Shown piece by piece: positions 2,530 through 18,874 of a stretch of DNA of 24,000 bases (its first letter is position 1; each line of letters starts with the position of its first letter). The notes under the pieces were generated by a model. The model worked only from the letters and a program-made list of their open reading frames with translations, was not told the DNA's origin and made no database searches. The stretch lies in the NCBI RefSeq assembly GCF_000376945.1, contig NZ_AQXU01000025.1, forward strand, positions 539,982 to 563,981, read 5' to 3'. A program made the position numbers and the translations under genes. This DNA comes from Leeia oryzae DSM 17879 (GTDB taxonomy: Bacteria > Pseudomonadota > Gammaproteobacteria > Burkholderiales > Leeiaceae).

Positions 2530-3066
2530 TTAATTCTGCATCATGTTGTGGTGCATGCCGTCATGCGGCATGCTGCCGGCTTCGGCATCCTTGCCATGGT
2601 CAGACACTTGCGCATCAAACCATTGATGCAGCGCTGTCACCAAAGAGGCATCCCGGGTGGTGTATTCAATCTGCCCGCCGCCCGGTACGTCCTGATACCG
2701 CACCTGCACGGTACCTGGCTTGGCCAGCTGCAAAACGGCCAGCCCCTGCATATCCATGCCATGAATATGCGCTGGCGCTGAAAAGTCACCCTGGCCAAAC
2801 TGGGCCGCAATCATGCCCAGATGCATGCGGATCATGCCGATCTGCGCAGTATTGCCCGCATCCCGTACCAGTACCTGCTGCACGCCGCCGGCTGGCGTTT
2901 TGGTAAACACATGCCGGGTAGCTTGTAGCTGAAACGGCATCACCTCGGCCCCTCGGCTGGCCACTTCAGCTTGCCGGCTGGTCTCTTCTGCGAACGTTGG
3001 CCCGGCAACCAGTAACGTGCTGCATCCGGACAGCGTTAACGTCATCACGGTGAATTGTTTTAACAC
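2530..3066 (-). CDS. Exported (possibly lipo-)protein of unknown function with a His/Met-rich C-terminus
   Basis: N-terminal signal sequence with a lipobox-like LSGC and a possible SPase I site TFA/EE. AGGAG at 3073-3077 sits 6 nt from the GTG at 3066; the listed start 3072 abuts the SD. The C-terminal tail is SMPHDGMHHNMMQN, with internal HIHGMDMQG and MIRMHLGM. I do not recognise the family. Confidence 0.6.
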   Translation of the reverse strand: MLKQFTVMTLTLSGCSTLLVAGPTFAEETSRQAEVASRGAEVMPFQLQATRHVFTKTPAGGVQQVLVRDAGNTAQIGMIRMHLGMIAAQFGQGDFSAPAHIHGMDMQGLAVLQLAKPGTVQVRYQDVPGGGQIEYTTRDASLVTALHQWFDAQVSDHGKDAEAGSMPHDGMHHNMMQN

Positions 3067-3125
3067 GAGCACCTCCTTTCAAAAACACCTGCTGCAATCT
3101 GACAAACACAGACCCAACCCTCAAA

Positions 3126-3491
3126 TCATACCTGCCGGATAGCATCCAGTATCAGATGCCCACCGATAAACAAGACAAAAACCCCGAACATCAGCTTGAG
3201 CATCTGTGCCTGCAACTGGCTGGCCAGCGTACCCCCTAGCCAGCCACCGACCATGAAGGCCGCCGCCACAATCAGCGCCGCCCGGAGATCTACATTGCCG
3301 TGCTGGTAATACTGGTAGGCCGCACCAATCCCCACCGGGGGCAGCAGAATGGCCAGGCTGGTCCCTACCGCCGCGTGCTGACTGAATTTGGCAAAGTAGA
3401 TCAGCGCCGGCACGATCAACACCCCGCCACCAATCCCGAACAGTCCGGAAGCCACTCCGGCAGATACCCCGATCAGCAAAAACATCCACAT
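3126..3491 (-). CDS. Half-size TauE/SafE (TSUP) family membrane transporter, about 121 aa with 4 predicted TM segments
   Basis: MWMFLLIGVSAGVASGLFGIGGGVLIVPALIYF is the typical TSUP G-x-GGG motif, followed by three more hydrophobic segments. I place the start at the ATG at 3491. The listed 5' extension to 3596 is hydrophilic and runs into the lysR promoter region. Confidence 0.75.
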   Translation of the reverse strand: MWMFLLIGVSAGVASGLFGIGGGVLIVPALIYFAKFSQHAAVGTSLAILLPPVGIGAAYQYYQHGNVDLRAALIVAAAFMVGGWLGGTLASQLQAQMLKLMFGVFVLFIGGHLILDAIRQV

Positions 3492-3557
3492 CACACACCC
3501 CGTTTTCCGCCATCGCTGGCAAAACCTGATGTCATGTACTCTATCGCGATCAAATCT

Positions 3558-3572
3558 ATCAAACAAACGGAT
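3558..3572. promoter_or_regulatory. LTTR-box-like site (ATC-N9-GAT, T-N11-A) in the tauE-like/lysR divergent intergenic region
   Basis: tATCaaacaaacgGATt lies 51-65 nt upstream of the lysR ATG and 67-81 nt upstream of the TauE-like ATG. Nearby are the palindrome ATCGCGAT (3543-3550) and the inverted pair ATCTATC (3554-3560) / GATAGAT (3601-3607). Motif match only. Confidence 0.35.
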
Positions 3573-3580
3573 TGTTTTCA

Positions 3581-3586
3581 TATAAT
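3581..3586 (+). promoter_or_regulatory. Candidate -10 hexamer for the LysR-family gene
   Basis: A perfect TATAAT lies 37 nt upstream of the ATG at 3623. No good -35 is present (TATCAA / ATCAAA at 17-18 nt). Confidence 0.35.
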
Positions 3587-3622
3587 CTACCAGCAAAATC
3601 GATAGATGATGGAAAGTACGCC

Positions 3623-9165: not shown

Positions 9166-9328
9166 CAAGGGCTAGCCTGCACCTGCCTACCCATCTCCGT
9201 CACCGCCGCAGAAATGCTATACATTCTTATCATTGAATGTGCATAATGTGGCGTTTCTGATTCGCACCTGACTGTTGCTGCCCGTCTGGCAGGTGCACTG
9301 CTTGCTCAACAGGTGGAGTGACGTACCC

Positions 9329-10135
9329 ATGTCCGACCTCGGTTTTGATGCACCGCTATTCATCAAACAGATTCACGAAACCACGGTGAATACTGTCAAC
9401 ACGCCCTTCTTTTACAACCAAAACGGCGTGCCAACCTATGTCAGCGAATTACCTCCAGGCATCACGCCACTAATACCTGCCACGACCCAGCCCGCGCTGG
9501 CCGTTGGCAAAGAGTATGTGGTCGCGGATGTGCTAAACGTCAAACCCACCCTGCCATACGGCATCGAAACCCAGCTGGGGTTTGCGGCACAAGAGGTCGA
9601 ATTCGAACCGCTGTGGGCGACCAAAGACATCGCCGCGGCCTTTGGCATCACCCTGGTTGAACCAGGGCAAGCGGTGATGCTGAGCAGCCCCGTGGTGGAA
9701 CTGCAGCAAATCGAATACGAATACGGTGTATTTGCAGGGCACTGGTCACCCTACCAGGGCACCGGCAACACCTTGCTCAGCGTGGTATGTACCGACCTGG
9801 AACACCACAACTTCCCGCACGTGTTTGCTTCGACCGACCCGACCCAGCCGTTGGTCATCTCGGTGGGCCGTTATTGGCCCAAGCTTGGCAAGATCCGGCT
9901 GGCAGACCTGTGGGTACCGCGCGGCAGTGCATTGTATATTCCGCCCAAGCCTGCTTCAGAGACGCTGGAATGCATCGACCTGCACAATAACCGCAATTCG
10001 GCCCGCGCCTGCTGGGGTGACATCCGGCAAAACAGCATCGTCACCCATACGTTATTACAAAACAACGACGGTTTTTTCTATTGGTACTGGAACGCGATAG
10101 CAACCCGGCACAGCAGACCCGTCGCTATTGGTTGA
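9329..10135 (+). CDS. Hypothetical protein (268 aa), family not recognised
   Basis: Long ORF in a region without competing frames. GGTGGAG lies about 10 nt upstream of the ATG at 9329. There is no signal peptide or TM segment. The C-terminal part (GSALYIPPKP...IDLHNNRN) is vaguely cupin-like. It ends 42 nt before the PAS-GGDEF gene on the same strand. Confidence 0.6.
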   Translation: MSDLGFDAPLFIKQIHETTVNTVNTPFFYNQNGVPTYVSELPPGITPLIPATTQPALAVGKEYVVADVLNVKPTLPYGIETQLGFAAQEVEFEPLWATKDIAAAFGITLVEPGQAVMLSSPVVELQQIEYEYGVFAGHWSPYQGTGNTLLSVVCTDLEHHNFPHVFASTDPTQPLVISVGRYWPKLGKIRLADLWVPRGSALYIPPKPASETLECIDLHNNRNSARACWGDIRQNSIVTHTLLQNNDGFFYWYWNAIATRHSRPVAIG

Positions 10136-11348: not shown

Positions 11349-14300
11349 TTAGCGCAGCGCAGCCTCGATACTGTCTTCTAGCACACTCAGCAAGTAATCC
11401 GCGTTCGCCTGGCTGAAAATCATGGATGGCCGCATTTTCAGCACGTTATCAAACGGGCCTTCCGTCCCCATCAGGACCCCTCTCTCCCGCGCGCCATCAC
11501 AGATCCTTTTGGTCAGTGCCGTCGCAGGTTCCTTGGTTTTGCGGTCCAGCACCAGTTCGATGCCAAGAAACAACCCCTGCCCGCGCACGTCGCCGATGAT
11601 GTCGTAACGCGCTTGCATCGATCGGAAACCCTTGAGCAGATAGTGACCGATATCAAGCGCATTTTGCTTGAGCCCGTCGCGTTCAATCACGTCCAGCACC
11701 GCCAGGCCAGCGGCACAAGAGACCGGGTTACCGGCAAAGGTATTGAAGTATTCCATGCCATTATTAAAACTGTCTGCCACTTCTCGTGTGGTCACCAGTG
11801 CAGACATGGGGTGCCCGTTGCCGATGGGTTTGCCCATGGTCACGATATCCGGCACAACATCCTGCATCTCGAAAGCCCACCAGTGGCTGCCAACACGCCC
11901 AAAACCAACCTGAACCTCGTCGGCAACACAAAGCCCGCCGGCGGCACGTACCATGGCATACACTTCTTTCAGATATCCTTCAGGGAAAAACACCTGCCCG
12001 GCAACGCTGGGGATGGATTCCGCCAGGAAGAAGGCGGGCTTGCGGCCCTGCTTTTTCATCGCCTCAATCTGCTCGGCCACGCTTTGCGCAAACCGCTTGC
12101 CATGCTCCTCTAGCGGCCAATCCGCTGGGGCACGATAACTATCGGGAATATCCGCCTGGAACACATGGTCCGGCTTCCCCTTGCCCCCTTTGCGCTTGTA
12201 TTTGTAGGGGCTCAGTTCAATCAGTTCCTGCGTCGTACCGTGATATGACCAGTCCAGCACCAGCGCATCCTGACTACCGGTATGCTGGCGCGCCATGCGC
12301 AACATCAGGCTGTTGGCCTCGCTGCCCGAGCAGGCAAAGGAGGCGACAGATAGCCCAGCCGGCAGCGTGGCCGTCAAACGCTCGGCATAGGAAATAATAT
12401 TGTCATGCAAATAGCGGGTATTGGTATTGAGGATGGCCGCCTGCCTGGCAATCGCCTCGACAACCTCGGGATGCGCATGGCCGAGATGGCAGACATTGTT
12501 AAAGCAGTCCAGGTAGGCGCGCCCGCGATGATCAATCAGCCAGACGCCATCGCCGCGCACAAACTTGATCGGCTCCGAATAAGACATGGATAAATTTGGC
12601 AACAGCAGTTCTTTCCGGCGTGAAATGATCTCCGGACAGGAGCGCCCTTCTTGGGTAAACGCCTCGGGGGGAATACCGGCCAGCGCCGCCACATCCGGAA
12701 AAACATCCGCCCACACATCAAGATACGCCGTCTCGCCCACGCCCAGCATGTCCGATGCCGCAAGATGGATGTCCGTCGACACCTGAAGATGCAGATGCGG
12801 GGTCCAGCCACCATTCTCGGTCATGCCACCCATATGGCCCACCAGGTCCCCCGCCGCCAGCTTCTGGCCTGGTTGCAGACGCGTCACGGCCTCGTGCCCC
12901 ATATGCCCCCACAACGTCACAAAAGGCGGGCAGCCTTCGGGTTCGTGCAACAGCGTGATCAAACCGCCATAATCAAGCGGATCGGGCTCGATTTGCACAC
13001 TGCGAACGGTCGCATCCAGTGGTGTATACACCGCCGTTCCGGCTGGCATGAACAGGTCCACGCCAAGGTGGTGAATCCGGTATTCGCCCTGGATGAATTT
13101 CGACGCAAACGCAGGGCTGGTATACACCGTTCTTTTTTCTCCCCATGGCCCGATGCCCAGCTGCACATGGTGACTGGCACAGAAATCCTCCCACCATGCC
13201 GTCGCATTCGTGGGATGCTGGGCTGCCGATTCCACGGTCATGTAGTGGGTGGCATCACCATACGGCACCAGCGCCTTGGTCATCGTGGCCGGGTGCGGAC
13301 GTACGATCGGCGCAAAATGCCGGGTGTTGGCAGCAATCCAGTGCCGGATTGCCCCAGCACCTTCGACCGCATCAAATCCGCACGCCTTGCGCAACATGGC
13401 CGTCGCAAAACGGGGATTCATGGCATCCAGCCGGTATAACAGCCGCCACGCGGGTGCTTCACTAATCGCAAGATAAGGATTGTCTTGCGTGCGATCATGA
13501 CGAGAGGCCGAAAACGTCACGCTGGTGACCAGCCGCATCGCGATAAGATCAAACAGGATATCGACTTCTTCCGGCAACAGCGGGTACTTCTCGTGAAAAC
13601 CGGCAACCAGCGCACCTGCGGTCCCAATCGGGTCCGCTGTCTCCAGAATCGAATAGGCGCACGCAATCGCCACATCGGCAATCAGGACAGAATGGACAGC
13701 ATCGCCAAAATCAATCAGACCCGCAATGTTCTCTGGCTGTGCTTCGTCCACCAGGACATTCCAGTCATTGGCATCATTATGGATGACCTGTGCCCGCATG
13801 CGGGACAGCTTCGGTGCAATCTGACGCTCAAAGCGCACGATAAAACGCTCCAGCAGTGCCCGTTGCGCTTCGTCTTGTACAAAGTGCAAACGCGAGCGTG
13901 AGCGGGCGGCATGGCGGAGGTCCCAATCCAGGTCGCGTAACGCCCCCGGATGAATAAACCCCTGCAAGGCACGATCAAGCTCTCCCAGCGTACGCCCCAG
14001 ATTGCCGAGCAACGCCAAGCGCCTGTCGACCTTGGCCAGCGGCGTCCCCGGAATCCATGACACCAGACGGACCGCATGTGTTTCTCCGGTCGCCGAGACG
14101 GTCGAACCAAGCAGCTTGCCGGACAGGCTCGCTCTTAAATGCGGGACCGGCATCGCCGGGTCGGTTTCGGTCAGGTGGTGCAATAATGCCGTCTGAAACT
14201 CGCTCTCCACACCGGGCTCGCTGGCATTCACGATCTTGAGAATCCAGTCCTGGCCGCTACCGGTTTTCACGCGGAAGTTCCGGTCGCGCTCCCCATCCAG

Positions 14301-14396
14301 CGGGGACGCCACCCCTTTCACGCCAAACATCTCTTCGCAGAGTTGCTCGGCATCGGTGACGCTATAGTTTGGTGCAGGGCGAGTAAGATCCGTCAT
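11349..14396 (-). CDS. Tri-domain fusion protein (1,015 aa): APH/HYKK-type kinase + M23 peptidase domain + class-III PLP enzyme of the AGXT2L (phospho-lyase-like) type
   Basis: One uninterrupted ORF. Kinase: HNDANDWN (nt 13758-13781, the H-x-D-x4-N catalytic loop) and IDFGD (13701-13715). M23: HLGVD (13056-13070, HxxxD) and HLH (12789-12797, HxH). PLP domain: [43 protein letters not shown], and [11 protein letters not shown] with the Schiff-base Lys codon at 11829-11831. The start is taken at the ATG at 14396, with GGAAG 6 nt upstream. The listed extension to 14504 runs through the tandem repeat and lacks an SD. Confidence 0.9.
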
Positions 14397-14441: not shown

Positions 14442-14529
14442 GCGGCATGTCACAAGCAACATCAATCGTGAGTGTTCCGGGCGGCATGTCACAAGCAACA
14501 TCAATCGTGAGTGTTCCGGGCTGCATGCC
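14442..14529. repeat. Perfect 39-bp tandem duplication (2 full units plus a 10-nt partial third)
   Basis: GCGGCATGTCACAAGCAACATCAATCGTGAGTGTTCCGG at 14442-14480 is identical to 14481-14519. Positions 14520-14529 (GCTGCATGCC) match the unit start at 8/10. The repeat lies between the fusion-gene start and the conserved element. Confidence 0.95.
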
Positions 14530-14543
14530 GCAGCAGCACGTCA

Positions 14544-14635
14544 GGCAATATGTTGGCATGCAAGCTGATTTGGGGCATCATGCATGTTTCCGGAATGTCC
14601 GGCAGATTGTCGGAATAGACCGGCATCTAGCCGGG
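14544..14635. repeat. Conserved ~92-nt intergenic element, copy A (fusion enzyme / lrp divergent region)
   Basis: An ungapped alignment to 16601-16692 gives 74/92 identities by hand count. The core 14581-14625 versus 16638-16682 gives 41/45. Both copies have the same orientation. Confidence 0.9.
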
Positions 14636-14654
14636 TTAACCAAGAAGGTATTTG

Positions 14655-15095
14655 ATGCGAGAGCTCGATGCAATTGACCGCGAAATTTTGACCATCCTTT
14701 CCAGGGACGCCAGAATTGCGGTGAAGGTACTGGCCGCCCGTGTCGGGCTATCACGCAGCGCAACGAGTGAACGTGTCACGAACCTGGAGAAACGCGGTGT
14801 CATCAGGGGGTATCGGGCCGATATTGGCGAAATCAACGCCAATATCATTCGTGCCATCCTGCTGGTGAGCCTCAAGCGTACCCCAGCAAACCAGCTACTG
14901 GACCTGCTGGCAGAACAGCCCGAAGTGCGACGGGTCTCGTCGGTGAGTGGCGAACTTGACCTGATTGTGGAAATCGAAGCAAGCAATATTGACGGACTTA
15001 ACCGGGTCCGAGACTGGCTTGCCGCACACGAAACGGTAGGCGATCTGACGACGTCGATCGTGTTGCGGCGAAATATTGACCGTGAAATGCGTTGA
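14655..15095 (+). CDS. Lrp/AsnC-family transcriptional regulator
   Basis: MRELDAIDREILTILSRDARIAVKVLAARVGLSRSATSERVTNLEKRGVIRGY is the canonical AsnC HTH, followed by a RAM-like C-terminal domain. GAAGG lies 6 nt upstream of the ATG at 14655. It is divergent from the fusion-enzyme gene. Confidence 0.9.
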   Translation: MRELDAIDREILTILSRDARIAVKVLAARVGLSRSATSERVTNLEKRGVIRGYRADIGEINANIIRAILLVSLKRTPANQLLDLLAEQPEVRRVSSVSGELDLIVEIEASNIDGLNRVRDWLAAHETVGDLTTSIVLRRNIDREMR

Positions 15096-15229: not shown

Positions 15230-15261
15230 AAAAAAATGGGGAACCGGTGTAATGGTTCCCC
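15230..15261 (-). terminator. Rho-independent terminator of the binding-protein gene
   Basis: On the minus strand, GGGGAACC / GGTTCCCC (15238-15245 / 15254-15261) form an 8-bp stem with an 8-nt loop. This is followed by ATTTTTTT (complement of 15230-15237), about 40 nt downstream of the stop at 15300. Confidence 0.8.
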
Positions 15262-15299: not shown

Positions 15300-16454
15300 T
15301 TACTTCATCGTAATCATGTCGGCCGCTTTCCAGCCAGCGTTCTCTTTAAAGTTCTTGTCATAGCCATAAATCGTAATGGCGGGTGATTTCATATCCCCTT
15401 TGGCATCAAAGCTGATCGGCCCGATCACGCCTTTTACCTTGACCTCATGCATGGCCGGCACAAAGACTTTTGGGTCAGTGGACTTTGCCTTGACCATGGC
15501 GGCCAGAAAAAAGTTGGTTGCATCATAAGCCTGGTAACCATACCCCTGCAGCGGCACGCCAAAACGTTTCTGGTACTTGGCCTGCAGCTCTTTTGCTCCC
15601 GGCATTTTCGCAATATCCATGGCCGCCTGAGAGCTATACACCGTGCTGTCCATCGCCTCCCCGCCCAGACGGACCATGTCACCGGTACTGGCGCCATCGC
15701 CCAGCAACACCTTGGATTTCACACCCAATCTGCGCATCTGGACTAGCAATGGCCCGGCCGTCGCGTCCATCCCGCCATACATCACGACATCCGGGCTGCG
15801 ACCCTTGATACTGGTCAGAATCGACATGAAATCTGTCGCCTTGTCGGAAGTAAACTCGCGGGAAACCACCTTTCCGCCAAGCGCTTTTACTTTTTTCTCA
15901 AACTCATCTGCCAAACCCTGGCCGTAAGCGGTTCGGTCATCAATCACGGCAAAGGTTTTGCCTTTCAGCTTTTGCACCCCGAAAATCGCGAGTGCCGGAC
16001 CTTGCTGGTCATCACGGCCCACCAGCCGGAAAGTCGTTGCGTAGCCTTGCTCCGTCAGCTTGGGGTTGGTCGAACTTGGCGTAATGTGGGGAATGCCTGC
16101 CGCTGCATAAATTTTGGAGGCTGGAATCGTCACCCCGGAGTTCATGTGCCCGATAATGGCCGACACTTTGGCATCGGCCAGTTTCTGTGCCACCAGTGTG
16201 CCGGTGCGGGGGTCACCGGCATCATCCTCACTGTCGAGTTCAAACGACACCTTCTGACCGCCAATGACCATTCCTTTCGCATTGGCCTCTTCCAGCGCCA
16301 ACCGGACTGCATTTTCATTTTCTTTGCCCAGGTGGCCTGCCGGCCCTGTCAAAGGGCCTGAATGACCGAATTTAACGACAATGTCTGCAAAGGCAGGCGC
16401 GCTCAGCATGGGCAAACTAACGGCAGCAACAAATAAACAGCGGCGAAATTGCAT
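15300..16454 (-). CDS. Periplasmic ABC-transporter substrate-binding protein, Leu/Ile/Val-binding (LivJ/K, Peripla_BP_6) family; orphan
   Basis: Sec signal MQFRRCLFVAAVSLPMLSAPAFA/D. The mature protein begins IVVKFGHSGPLTGPAGHLGKENENAVRLALEEANA, with later IIGHMNSGV and FAVIDDRTAYGQGLADEF, typical of the type I amino-acid binding fold. GGAGAG lies about 5-6 nt upstream of the ATG at 16454; the listed start 16478 is a TTG. No permease or ATPase genes are adjacent. Confidence 0.9.
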   Translation of the reverse strand: MQFRRCLFVAAVSLPMLSAPAFADIVVKFGHSGPLTGPAGHLGKENENAVRLALEEANAKGMVIGGQKVSFELDSEDDAGDPRTGTLVAQKLADAKVSAIIGHMNSGVTIPASKIYAAAGIPHITPSSTNPKLTEQGYATTFRLVGRDDQQGPALAIFGVQKLKGKTFAVIDDRTAYGQGLADEFEKKVKALGGKVVSREFTSDKATDFMSILTSIKGRSPDVVMYGGMDATAGPLLVQMRRLGVKSKVLLGDGASTGDMVRLGGEAMDSTVYSSQAAMDIAKMPGAKELQAKYQKRFGVPLQGYGYQAYDATNFFLAAMVKAKSTDPKVFVPAMHEVKVKGVIGPISFDAKGDMKSPAITIYGYDKNFKENAGWKAADMITMK

Positions 16455-16487
16455 GGTTTCTCTCCAAGAGTCTTGCAAGTTACGTTA

Positions 16488-18175: not shown

Positions 18176-18874
18176 TCATCTCTTTGAGTTAGCTTCTACT
18201 GATGAGCATGCAACTTCATAGATGGCGGCTGCGTTCAACACAGATACTGGCGCTCCCCTGCGTGCAATCTGGAGCATAGCCTGACCGATAACTTCGGTGG
18301 TTAGAACATATGACGGGAAAAGCTTCCGGCCAAAAGTGAGCAAGGGGCTCAAGACTTTATAGAAGATGCGATAGGAGTCAGTCTTGGACACTGCGTTGTT
18401 CAATGGCTGAATTACTGCCGGACGCAAGACATGTACATGCTTGAATGGTAGGCGTAGCAGTGCGTTCTCCGTTTTACCCCGAACCCTGGCCCACATGCTT
18501 GAACCTTGTTCGCTACTGTCTGCCCCTGCGCCCGATACATAAACGAAACTCGCCTGCGGGCTGATGCTGCTAAGGCGCTCAGCCACCGCCATCGTGAGGC
18601 TGTATGTCAGCGCTGTGTATTTCTCCTCAGAGAGGCCCGATGCCGATACCCCGAGGCAGAAAAAGCATGCATCCACGTTGCGCAGGTCATCATCCGTAAT
18701 TTCGGATGTGTCTGTCGCAAAATGCGGACGCACCACCTGAACCAGTTTTGGATGGTCCAACAGCAATGCCGAACGACCGATGGAAACCACTCGTTCAACG
18801 TCAGCCGCAAGCAAGCACTCGCGCAGAACGCCTCCACCCACCATGCCGGAGGCTCCAAAAAACAGAACTTTCAT
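18176..18874 (-). CDS. NAD(P)H-binding protein (atypical SDR / NmrA-like)
   Basis: The N-terminal Rossmann motif MKVLFFGASGMVGGGVLRECL (GxxGxxG) is present. It is 232 aa with no canonical YxxxK stretch that I can see. It lies 11 nt downstream of the AraC-family gene. Confidence 0.8.
   Translation of the reverse strand: MKVLFFGASGMVGGGVLRECLLAADVERVVSIGRSALLLDHPKLVQVVRPHFATDTSEITDDDLRNVDACFFCLGVSASGLSEEKYTALTYSLTMAVAERLSSISPQASFVYVSGAGADSSEQGSSMWARVRGKTENALLRLPFKHVHVLRPAVIQPLNNAVSKTDSYRIFYKVLSPLLTFGRKLFPSYVLTTEVIGQAMLQIARRGAPVSVLNAAAIYEVACSSVEANSKR

Follow-up and report, generated by a model that had tools for sequence, protein, structure and literature searches.

A kinase–M23–phospho-lyase fusion protein of the PRK06148 family in Leeia oryzae DSM 17879

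A stretch of 24,000 nucleotides from Leeia oryzae DSM 17879 (contig NZ_AQXU01000025.1, positions 539,982 to 563,981 of the forward strand), termed the window, carries on its minus strand a gene in which an APH-type kinase, an M23 (LytM-type) domain and a pyridoxal phosphate (PLP) domain of phospho-lyase type are fused. The gene has a divergent Lrp/AsnC gene upstream and a convergent PAS-GGDEF gene downstream. Profile, structural and genome comparisons show that three apparently intact catalytic modules are coupled in one cytoplasmic polypeptide over great evolutionary distance. A preliminary description of the window, made from the letters alone, had drawn attention to the fusion. The gene is composed of the following parts.

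11349–14396, minus strand: whole gene, kinase–M23–phospho-lyase fusion (PRK06148 family), 1,015 amino acids, stop codon included
13377–14396, minus strand: APH/protein-kinase-like small-molecule kinase domain, residues 1–340, with the HxDxxxxN loop at 206–213, IDFGD at 228–232 and Lys54
13161–13376, minus strand: helical linker from kinase to M23 domain, residues 341–412, poorly conserved (12% mean identity)
12762–13160, minus strand: M23 (LytM-type) core, residues 413–545, with H443, D447 and H536 as zinc ligands and H498 and H534 as catalytic residues
12597–12761, minus strand: helical tail of the middle module leading to the PLP domain, residues 546–600 (26% mean identity)
11352–12596, minus strand: class-III PLP fold of the ETNPPL/PHYKPL/A1RDF1 phospho-lyase type, residues 601–1015, with Lys856 and Asp826

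The gene and its three domains

The gene is one open reading frame (ORF) of 1,015 codons on the minus strand (11349–14396) whose translation is free of stops, as had been described, and the records for Leeia oryzae include a protein of 100% identity. The Pfam combination APH, Peptidase_M23 and Aminotran_3 recurs in more than 1,000 homologs; together with the identical record, these exclude a frameshift or assembly artefact. An alternative TTG start at 14504 would lengthen the frame. The likely start is the ATG at 14396, because homologs of 1,015–1,018 amino acids give alignments that begin at M1.

The protein matches the NCBIfam model NF004799 (PRK06148) over its full length, with residues 1–1014 aligned to profile positions 1–1012 of 1015 and a score of 1691.9 bits (cut-off 1128). 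By this measure it is an ordinary member of a catalogued family and displays no departures from it. The fusion can likewise be aligned over the whole length of the sister model NF004800 (PRK06149, ‘aminotransferase’), at 672 bits, which is under that model's cut-off of 973. As the fusion is already catalogued as PRK06148, the architecture is a known one, with a family name of its own, and the fusion is said to have been noticed over a decade ago. Nonetheless, the literature searched yielded no paper characterising the bacterial fusion, its substrate or the role of its M23 domain.

The N-terminus has no hydrophobic segment, the top Kyte-Doolittle mean being 0.79 over 12-residue windows in the first 60 residues. 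No signal peptide or membrane segment is present in the protein, in agreement with the earlier account, and it is predicted to be cytoplasmic. An AlphaFold2 model of the full-length fusion has a mean predicted local distance difference test score (pLDDT) of 93.2 and a predicted template modelling score (pTM) of 0.83. All three Pfam domains exceed their gathering scores, far beyond chance, and the domain borders first proposed hold; the motifs quoted with them (HNDANDWN, IDFGD, HLGVD and HLH) all lie where they had been placed.

The kinase assignment rests on a match to Pfam APH (PF01636) over residues 34–268 (E 1e-31, 110.9 bits against a gathering score of 23.2), with the catalytic loop HNDANDWN at 206–213 and IDFGD at 228–232, which bears out the proposed N-terminal APH-type kinase. 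D208, N213 and D229 do not vary among 58 fusions, and the conservation of K54 is 90% or more. The sole solved sequence relative of the domain is PDB entry 6ef6, a weak match (E 1e-3, 21 bits) which we take to be the (S)-1-amino-2-propanol kinase of Mycobacterium smegmatis. In one source a homolog bears the name ‘hydroxylysine kinase’; this is an annotation and not a test of likeness to HYKK. In the structural model the linker that follows the kinase contains helices at 347–356, 385–391 and 395–409.

The C-terminal domain matches Pfam Aminotran_3 over residues 610–1008 (E 1e-74). Its PLP lysine, K856, lies in the motif TMGKPIGNG at 853–861 and is at least 90% conserved, and the pyridine-binding D826, within ADEVQ, is invariant. 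Among solved chains, human ETNPPL (6tor) is the closest, with 442 bits, E 7e-132, 48% identity, a target-normalised template modelling score (TM-score) of 0.95 and a root-mean-square deviation of 1.3 Å, followed by A1RDF1 (5g4i) with 359 bits, E 6e-106, 43% identity and a target-normalised TM-score of 0.95. Racemases, dialkylglycine decarboxylase and transaminases reach at most 198 bits and 28–34% identity, such that the two phospho-lyases lead any transaminase, racemase or decarboxylase by 160–245 bits. The likeness to phospho-lyases over transaminases, which had been put forward earlier, is thus borne out, and by scores against solved structures, with ETNPPL and A1RDF1 as the phospho-lyases compared, the domain belongs with the phospho-lyases and not with the transaminases.

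The middle domain has an M23 (LytM-type) core. Pfam Peptidase_M23 (PF01551) matches residues 443–541 (E 9e-12, 45.5 bits against 28.7), and the motifs HHLGVD, WGHMGH and HLHLQ are found at 442–447, 496–501 and 534–538. The sequence can be aligned in register with the M23 chains 9gy1, 2hsi and Csd/TagE. In this alignment H443 and D447 correspond to HxxxD, H534 and H536 to HxH, and H498 to the mid-domain catalytic histidine of M23 peptidases. Residues 400–585 are modelled with a pLDDT of 90, and the best 41 matches of the modelled domain in a Foldseek search of the PDB are all M23/LytM domains, at 17–24% identity. The prediction thus shows an M23 fold. The helical tail beyond the core displays helices at 556–565, 570–573 and 587–597.

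Conservation and distribution of the M23 site

A search with the middle region (residues 341–600) against 1.84 billion sequences gave 864 cluster representatives at E<=1e-10, and conservation was counted in 136 diverse representatives that cover the core. H443, D447, H498, H534, H536, W531, G477 and G523 are invariant in all 136, and H484 is found in 135. The invariant set thus includes H498 and H534, which are catalytic histidines and not zinc ligands, and the intact zinc site first read from the Leeia protein proves to be a property of the family. Around the site are invariant residues specific to the family (E420, R422, Y425, R440, N528 and W531), and also the motif ENGGWxPHLH. When conservation is expressed as mean identity to the query among 44 distant three-domain homologs, the lyase has 50.5%, the M23 core 43%, the kinase 35.5% and the linker at 341–412 only 12%. 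The M23 core is thereby better conserved than the kinase. These counts indicate that the M23 site is under strict selection.

One genome per species was scanned for the motif NG[GN]WxPH[LV]H, and at least 595 species genomes were confirmed. They span Alpha-, Beta- and Gammaproteobacteria, Acidobacteriota, Gemmatimonadota, Bacteroidota/Rhodothermales, Chloroflexota, Planctomycetota, Actinomycetota and Heliobacteria. Archaeal carriers include an Asgard archaeon, whose protein is a PRK06148 member (1,274 bits), and an Altiarchaeota genome. In 80 loci, kinase, M23 domain and lyase reside in one gene 73 times, the middle module stands alone six times, and one gene is cut by a contig end. The 73 fused loci cover Proteobacteria, Acidobacteriota, Gemmatimonadota, Rhodothermales, Chloroflexota, Planctomycetota, Actinomycetota, Heliobacteria and the Asgard archaeon, and this breadth agrees with the coupling of kinase to lyase that had been proposed.

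Split genes are of two kinds. One locus (L087, 5129–9020) has an APH–M23 gene of 595 amino acids followed, 3 bp on, by a separate phospho-lyase gene. The other has an M23–lyase gene of 695 amino acids, preceded by a gene on the same strand that is cut by the contig end. In both forms the genes remain neighbours on one strand, the APH–M23 gene with a lyase gene and the M23–lyase gene with the truncated one, as is to be expected of a coupled kinase and lyase. The L087 locus comes from a metagenome-assembled genome, where a bona fide dapF overlaps the APH–M23 start by 4 bp; this single case was not used as evidence. Short metagenome representatives of ~560–630 amino acids that resemble ‘APH–M23’ proteins were not taken as such, one being cut by a contig end and another a true split gene.

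The standalone M23 proteins, of ~290–310 amino acids, are complete, carry no signal peptide and keep the helical linker and all of the invariant residues. Those in Rhodobacteraceae adjoin housekeeping genes (recR, accD/folC) and are uninformative as to function. At another locus (L089, 1–6921; also L090 and L091) a standalone M23 gene of 306 amino acids is the last in an operon with genes for an oligopeptide-type ATP-binding cassette (ABC) ATPase, an alpha/beta-hydrolase-like protein, a binding protein of the SBP_bac_5 (Dpp/Opp) type, an amidase-signature enzyme and an FMN_bind_2 protein. The operon is suggestive of an amide or peptide that is imported and then hydrolysed.

A sister family, PRK06149, has the same three parts with a degenerate M23 domain. 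In Ensifer/Sinorhizobium a PRK06149 paralog (1,558 bits) resides two genes away from the PRK06148 gene and beside hutC/hutF. Two such paralogs were located.

L018, 13073–15997, minus strand: PRK06149 paralog with kinase, degenerate M23 domain and lyase
L097, 13253–16183, minus strand: PRK06149 paralog with kinase, degenerate M23 domain and lyase

The kinase and lyase motifs of the paralog are intact and its middle domain can be aligned, with A in place of H443, V in place of H498, I or L in place of H534 and V in place of H536. The PRK06149 middle domain has no Pfam M23 match even at E<=1.

Regulator, operator and neighbouring genes

Two features in the space upstream of the Leeia fusion recur among its relatives.

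14652–15095, plus strand: Lrp/AsnC-family regulator, divergent from the fusion, with Pfam HTH_AsnC-type and AsnC_trans_reg domains
14553–14634, no strand: conserved intergenic block with TCCGRCA-like repeats and GCATGCCAA

Neighbours were counted by tblastn, since the ORF calls used for clustering were noisy in high-GC (guanine + cytosine) DNA. An orthologous Lrp/AsnC gene lies divergently, 120–330 bp upstream of the fusion, in 22 of the 22 loci of the close clade. It is found at six of nine loci in the next clade and is essentially absent in distant phyla. A polar-amino-acid ABC importer of SBP_bac_3 type (binding protein, permeases and ATPase) follows the fusion gene in 12 of the 22 close loci; the highest scores of its binding proteins are to the model of the Lys/Arg/Orn subfamily, yet under that model's cut-off. 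When neighbours were clustered across 72 loci, Lrp and the ABC importer were all that recurred.

The co-occurrence of the fusion with Lrp and LivK-type genes, proposed from the Leeia window, holds for Lrp in all of the close relatives and fails for LivK. In 86 other loci no LivK-type homolog is present within 5 kb of the fusion, and two weak matches (27–29% identity) lie more than 5 kb away; a LivK-type association was therefore rejected. The Leeia LivK-type binding protein (Peripla_BP_6; 15300–16478, minus strand) is an orphan with no LivHMGF partner genes nearby, and its gene has a terminator-like hairpin at 15261–15238.

The intergenic block at 14553–14634, ~80 nt of non-coding DNA, can be aligned across Leeia, Paraburkholderia, Pseudomonas, Brucella and Rhizobium with long invariant runs. 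The invariant strings are ATTCCGACA.T.TGC.GG and GCATGCCAA. A promoter-like TTGGCA site lies within the block at 14553–14581 on the plus strand. The block is a probable operator/promoter shared by the regulator and the fusion gene. Its conservation, together with 71–84% protein identity across three proteobacterial classes, suggests that regulator, operator and enzyme, sometimes with the importer, have spread horizontally as a unit.

Between the block and the fusion ATG a 39-bp unit is tandemly duplicated at 14442–14527 (2.2 copies, 97% match). The counterparts in Paraburkholderia, Pseudomonas, Brucella and Rhizobium lack the duplication, and the TTG at 14504 falls inside it.

Elsewhere in the window, a 156-amino-acid ORF at 3126–3596 (minus strand) matches the C-terminal half only of the TauE/SafE sulfite-exporter profile, and an adjoining ORF of 180 amino acids at 2530–3072 (minus strand) has no Pfam match. 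The region 2530–3596 (minus strand) may represent a transporter gene that has been split or truncated; a divergent LysR regulator lies next to it. Two more ORFs, at 9275–10135 (plus strand, 286 amino acids) and 18176–18874 (minus strand, 232 amino acids), have no Pfam match at E<=0.001.

Proposed function and comparison with known systems

The explanation preferred here, which we hold to be moderately probable, is that the fusion is a self-contained cytoplasmic catabolic enzyme, in which a kinase and then a phospho-lyase act in sequence and the M23 domain is an active hydrolase. By analogy with related enzymes, the APH-type kinase would phosphorylate a hydroxyl adjacent to the terminal amine of a small amino compound. 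The PLP domain would then form an external aldimine with that amine and eliminate phosphate, and the released enamine/imine would hydrolyse to an aldehyde and ammonia. The M23 domain would act in the cytoplasm on a small compound with an amide or peptide linkage and might thereby release the amine or amino alcohol ahead of these two steps; it would also form a structural bridge between kinase and lyase. In the proteobacterial clade the substrate would be a hydroxylated basic amino acid, e.g., 5-hydroxylysine converted to 2-aminoadipate semialdehyde, rather than plain ethanolamine. This is the most likely substrate because an Lrp/AsnC regulator accompanies the gene there, joined at about half of the loci by a Lys/Arg/Orn-type importer. 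Given its conservation and context, the M23 domain is probably an active cytoplasmic zinc hydrolase, and this is the weakest link of the explanation.

Several observations weigh against this view. The Leeia locus itself has no ABC importer. Distant phyla display no conserved neighbour, so the amino-acid argument is limited to the proteobacterial clade. An importer of free amino acids is an awkward partner for an enzyme that must first deacylate or cleave a conjugate, and NCBI names the NF004799/PRK06148 family ‘hypothetical protein’. Also, PRK06149 lacks the M23 histidines, and the kinase–lyase pair can therefore work without M23 catalysis. The sister family cuts both ways, in that the fold is of use as a bridge without catalysis, yet the site never decays where it is present.

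A different substrate, a simple amino alcohol such as ethanolamine and/or 1-amino-2-propanol, is compatible with either role of the M23 domain and is regarded as doubtful, though it accounts for part of the evidence. Among solved structures the lyase comes closest to ETNPPL, and A1RDF1 too acts on phosphoethanolamine; the only solved kinase relative, 6ef6, is presumably an aminopropanol kinase, but the match to it is weak. Presence in many phyla without a conserved importer is as expected for a ubiquitous, permeant metabolite. Biochemical work of the 1970s on Pseudomonas and Erwinia is said to have detected amino-alcohol kinase and O-phosphate phospho-lyase activities, and with such a substrate the fusion would be the gene for them. 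However, the partners found in the clade of the Leeia gene are an Lrp/AsnC regulator and a Lys/Arg/Orn-like ABC importer, not an ethanolamine permease, and an amino-alcohol substrate leaves the invariant M23 site without a role.

It is also conceivable, and we think unlikely, that the M23 domain is a zinc-stabilised scaffold, an oligomerisation module or a substrate-holding module that positions the kinase relative to a dimeric PLP domain, with kinase and lyase alone being catalytic. That PRK06149 keeps an alignable middle domain without the site is consistent with such a role, since the fold is then of use without catalysis. It is well known that degenerate LytM domains can serve in protein–protein contacts; the Foldseek structural neighbours include EnvC, DipM and SpoIIQ, and the full-length model is compact (pTM 0.83). 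On the other hand, zinc binding needs only H443, D447 and H536, whereas the catalytic H498 and H534 are equally invariant. Conservation of the core above that of the kinase is contrary to a scaffold-only role, and the full site is retained in the standalone cytoplasmic copies, which have neither a kinase nor a lyase in their vicinity.

That the C-terminal domain is an ordinary class-III aminotransferase, linking phosphorylation to transamination, is highly improbable: sources do name the fusion ‘aminotransferase class III-fold PLP-dependent enzyme’ and many transaminase models match at E 1e-50 to 1e-80, but every one of these falls far under its own cut-off, the solved phospho-lyases outscore all transaminases by the margin given above, A1RDF1 reportedly showed no transaminase activity, and a lasting fusion to a kinase is the signature used for predicting phospho-lyase function.

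An extension of the hydrolase proposal can be stated as a tentative conjecture. The middle domain might found an unrecognised class of cytoplasmic M23 small-molecule amidases or peptidases, as opposed to hydrolases of the cell wall, and PRK06148 proteins would be three-step machines that unmask, phosphorylate and eliminate. In that event the nutrient would be a widespread conjugated hydroxy-amino compound, standalone members would unmask in other pathways, and PRK06149 would represent the version for an unconjugated substrate.

Relative to the literature searched, four points are new: the invariance of the M23 catalytic set across phyla, in a domain more constrained than the kinase; the standalone cytoplasmic M23 proteins, with both kinds of split gene; a sister family that specifically lacks the M23 site; and a proteobacterial clade with a conserved Lrp operator and an amino-acid importer. 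The kinase-to-phospho-lyase logic of PRK06148-type proteins led to the discovery of three human enzymes, and the carriers number in the hundreds of species, drawn from soil, rhizosphere, marine and archaeal lineages. Were the M23 site catalytic, M23 chemistry would reach beyond the cell wall into the small-molecule metabolism of the cytoplasm, and an unrecognised conjugated nutrient of the amino-alcohol or hydroxylysine type would be indicated. The fusion is also tractable, being a single soluble polypeptide with few candidate substrates and, in PRK06149, a natural ‘M23-dead’ control.

Compared with known systems, the Leeia protein shares its three-module layout and a full-length match with PRK06148, from which PRK06149 differs by loss of the M23 zinc site. 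With the M23/LytM metallopeptidases (lysostaphin, LytM, EnpA, ShyA and LasA) the middle domain has in common the fold and the HxxxD, H and HxH residues. Characterised M23 members are typically extracytoplasmic and cut peptidoglycan or secreted peptides; the Leeia domain, unlike them, has neither a signal peptide nor a cell-wall-targeting domain and resides between cytoplasmic enzymes. The degenerate LytM factors EnvC, NlpD, DipM and SpoIIQ share the fold as well, but the Leeia site is not degenerate as in EnvC and NlpD.

The kinase 6ef6 can be set beside the pathway of microcompartment loci, in which an amino-alcohol kinase feeds a class-III-fold phospho-lyase; the genes are separate there and no M23 domain is involved. 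No microcompartment genes are present in the Leeia window. A1RDF1 of Arthrobacter aurescens TC1 (PDB 5g4i/5g4j) is a bacterial class-III-fold phospho-lyase with 43% identity to the Leeia domain over 423 aligned columns; unlike the Leeia fusion it is a standalone protein of 446 amino acids, without fused kinase or M23 domain.

The vertebrate enzymes offer a functional parallel. HYKK (AGPHD1) with PHYKPL (AGXT2L2), and ETNPPL (AGXT2L1), likewise represent an APH-family kinase and class-III-fold PLP lyases, and the same two-step logic is expected. The 2012 study by Veiga-da-Cunha et al. is cited in PMC8154272. The vertebrate enzymes are separate proteins, whereas Leeia has one polypeptide with an additional M23 domain that lacks a vertebrate counterpart. 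Veiga-da-Cunha and colleagues are said to have remarked in 2012 that bacterial homologs are ‘bi- or tri-functional’ and carry a putative kinase, and this was reportedly the clue to HYKK, PHYKPL and ETNPPL.

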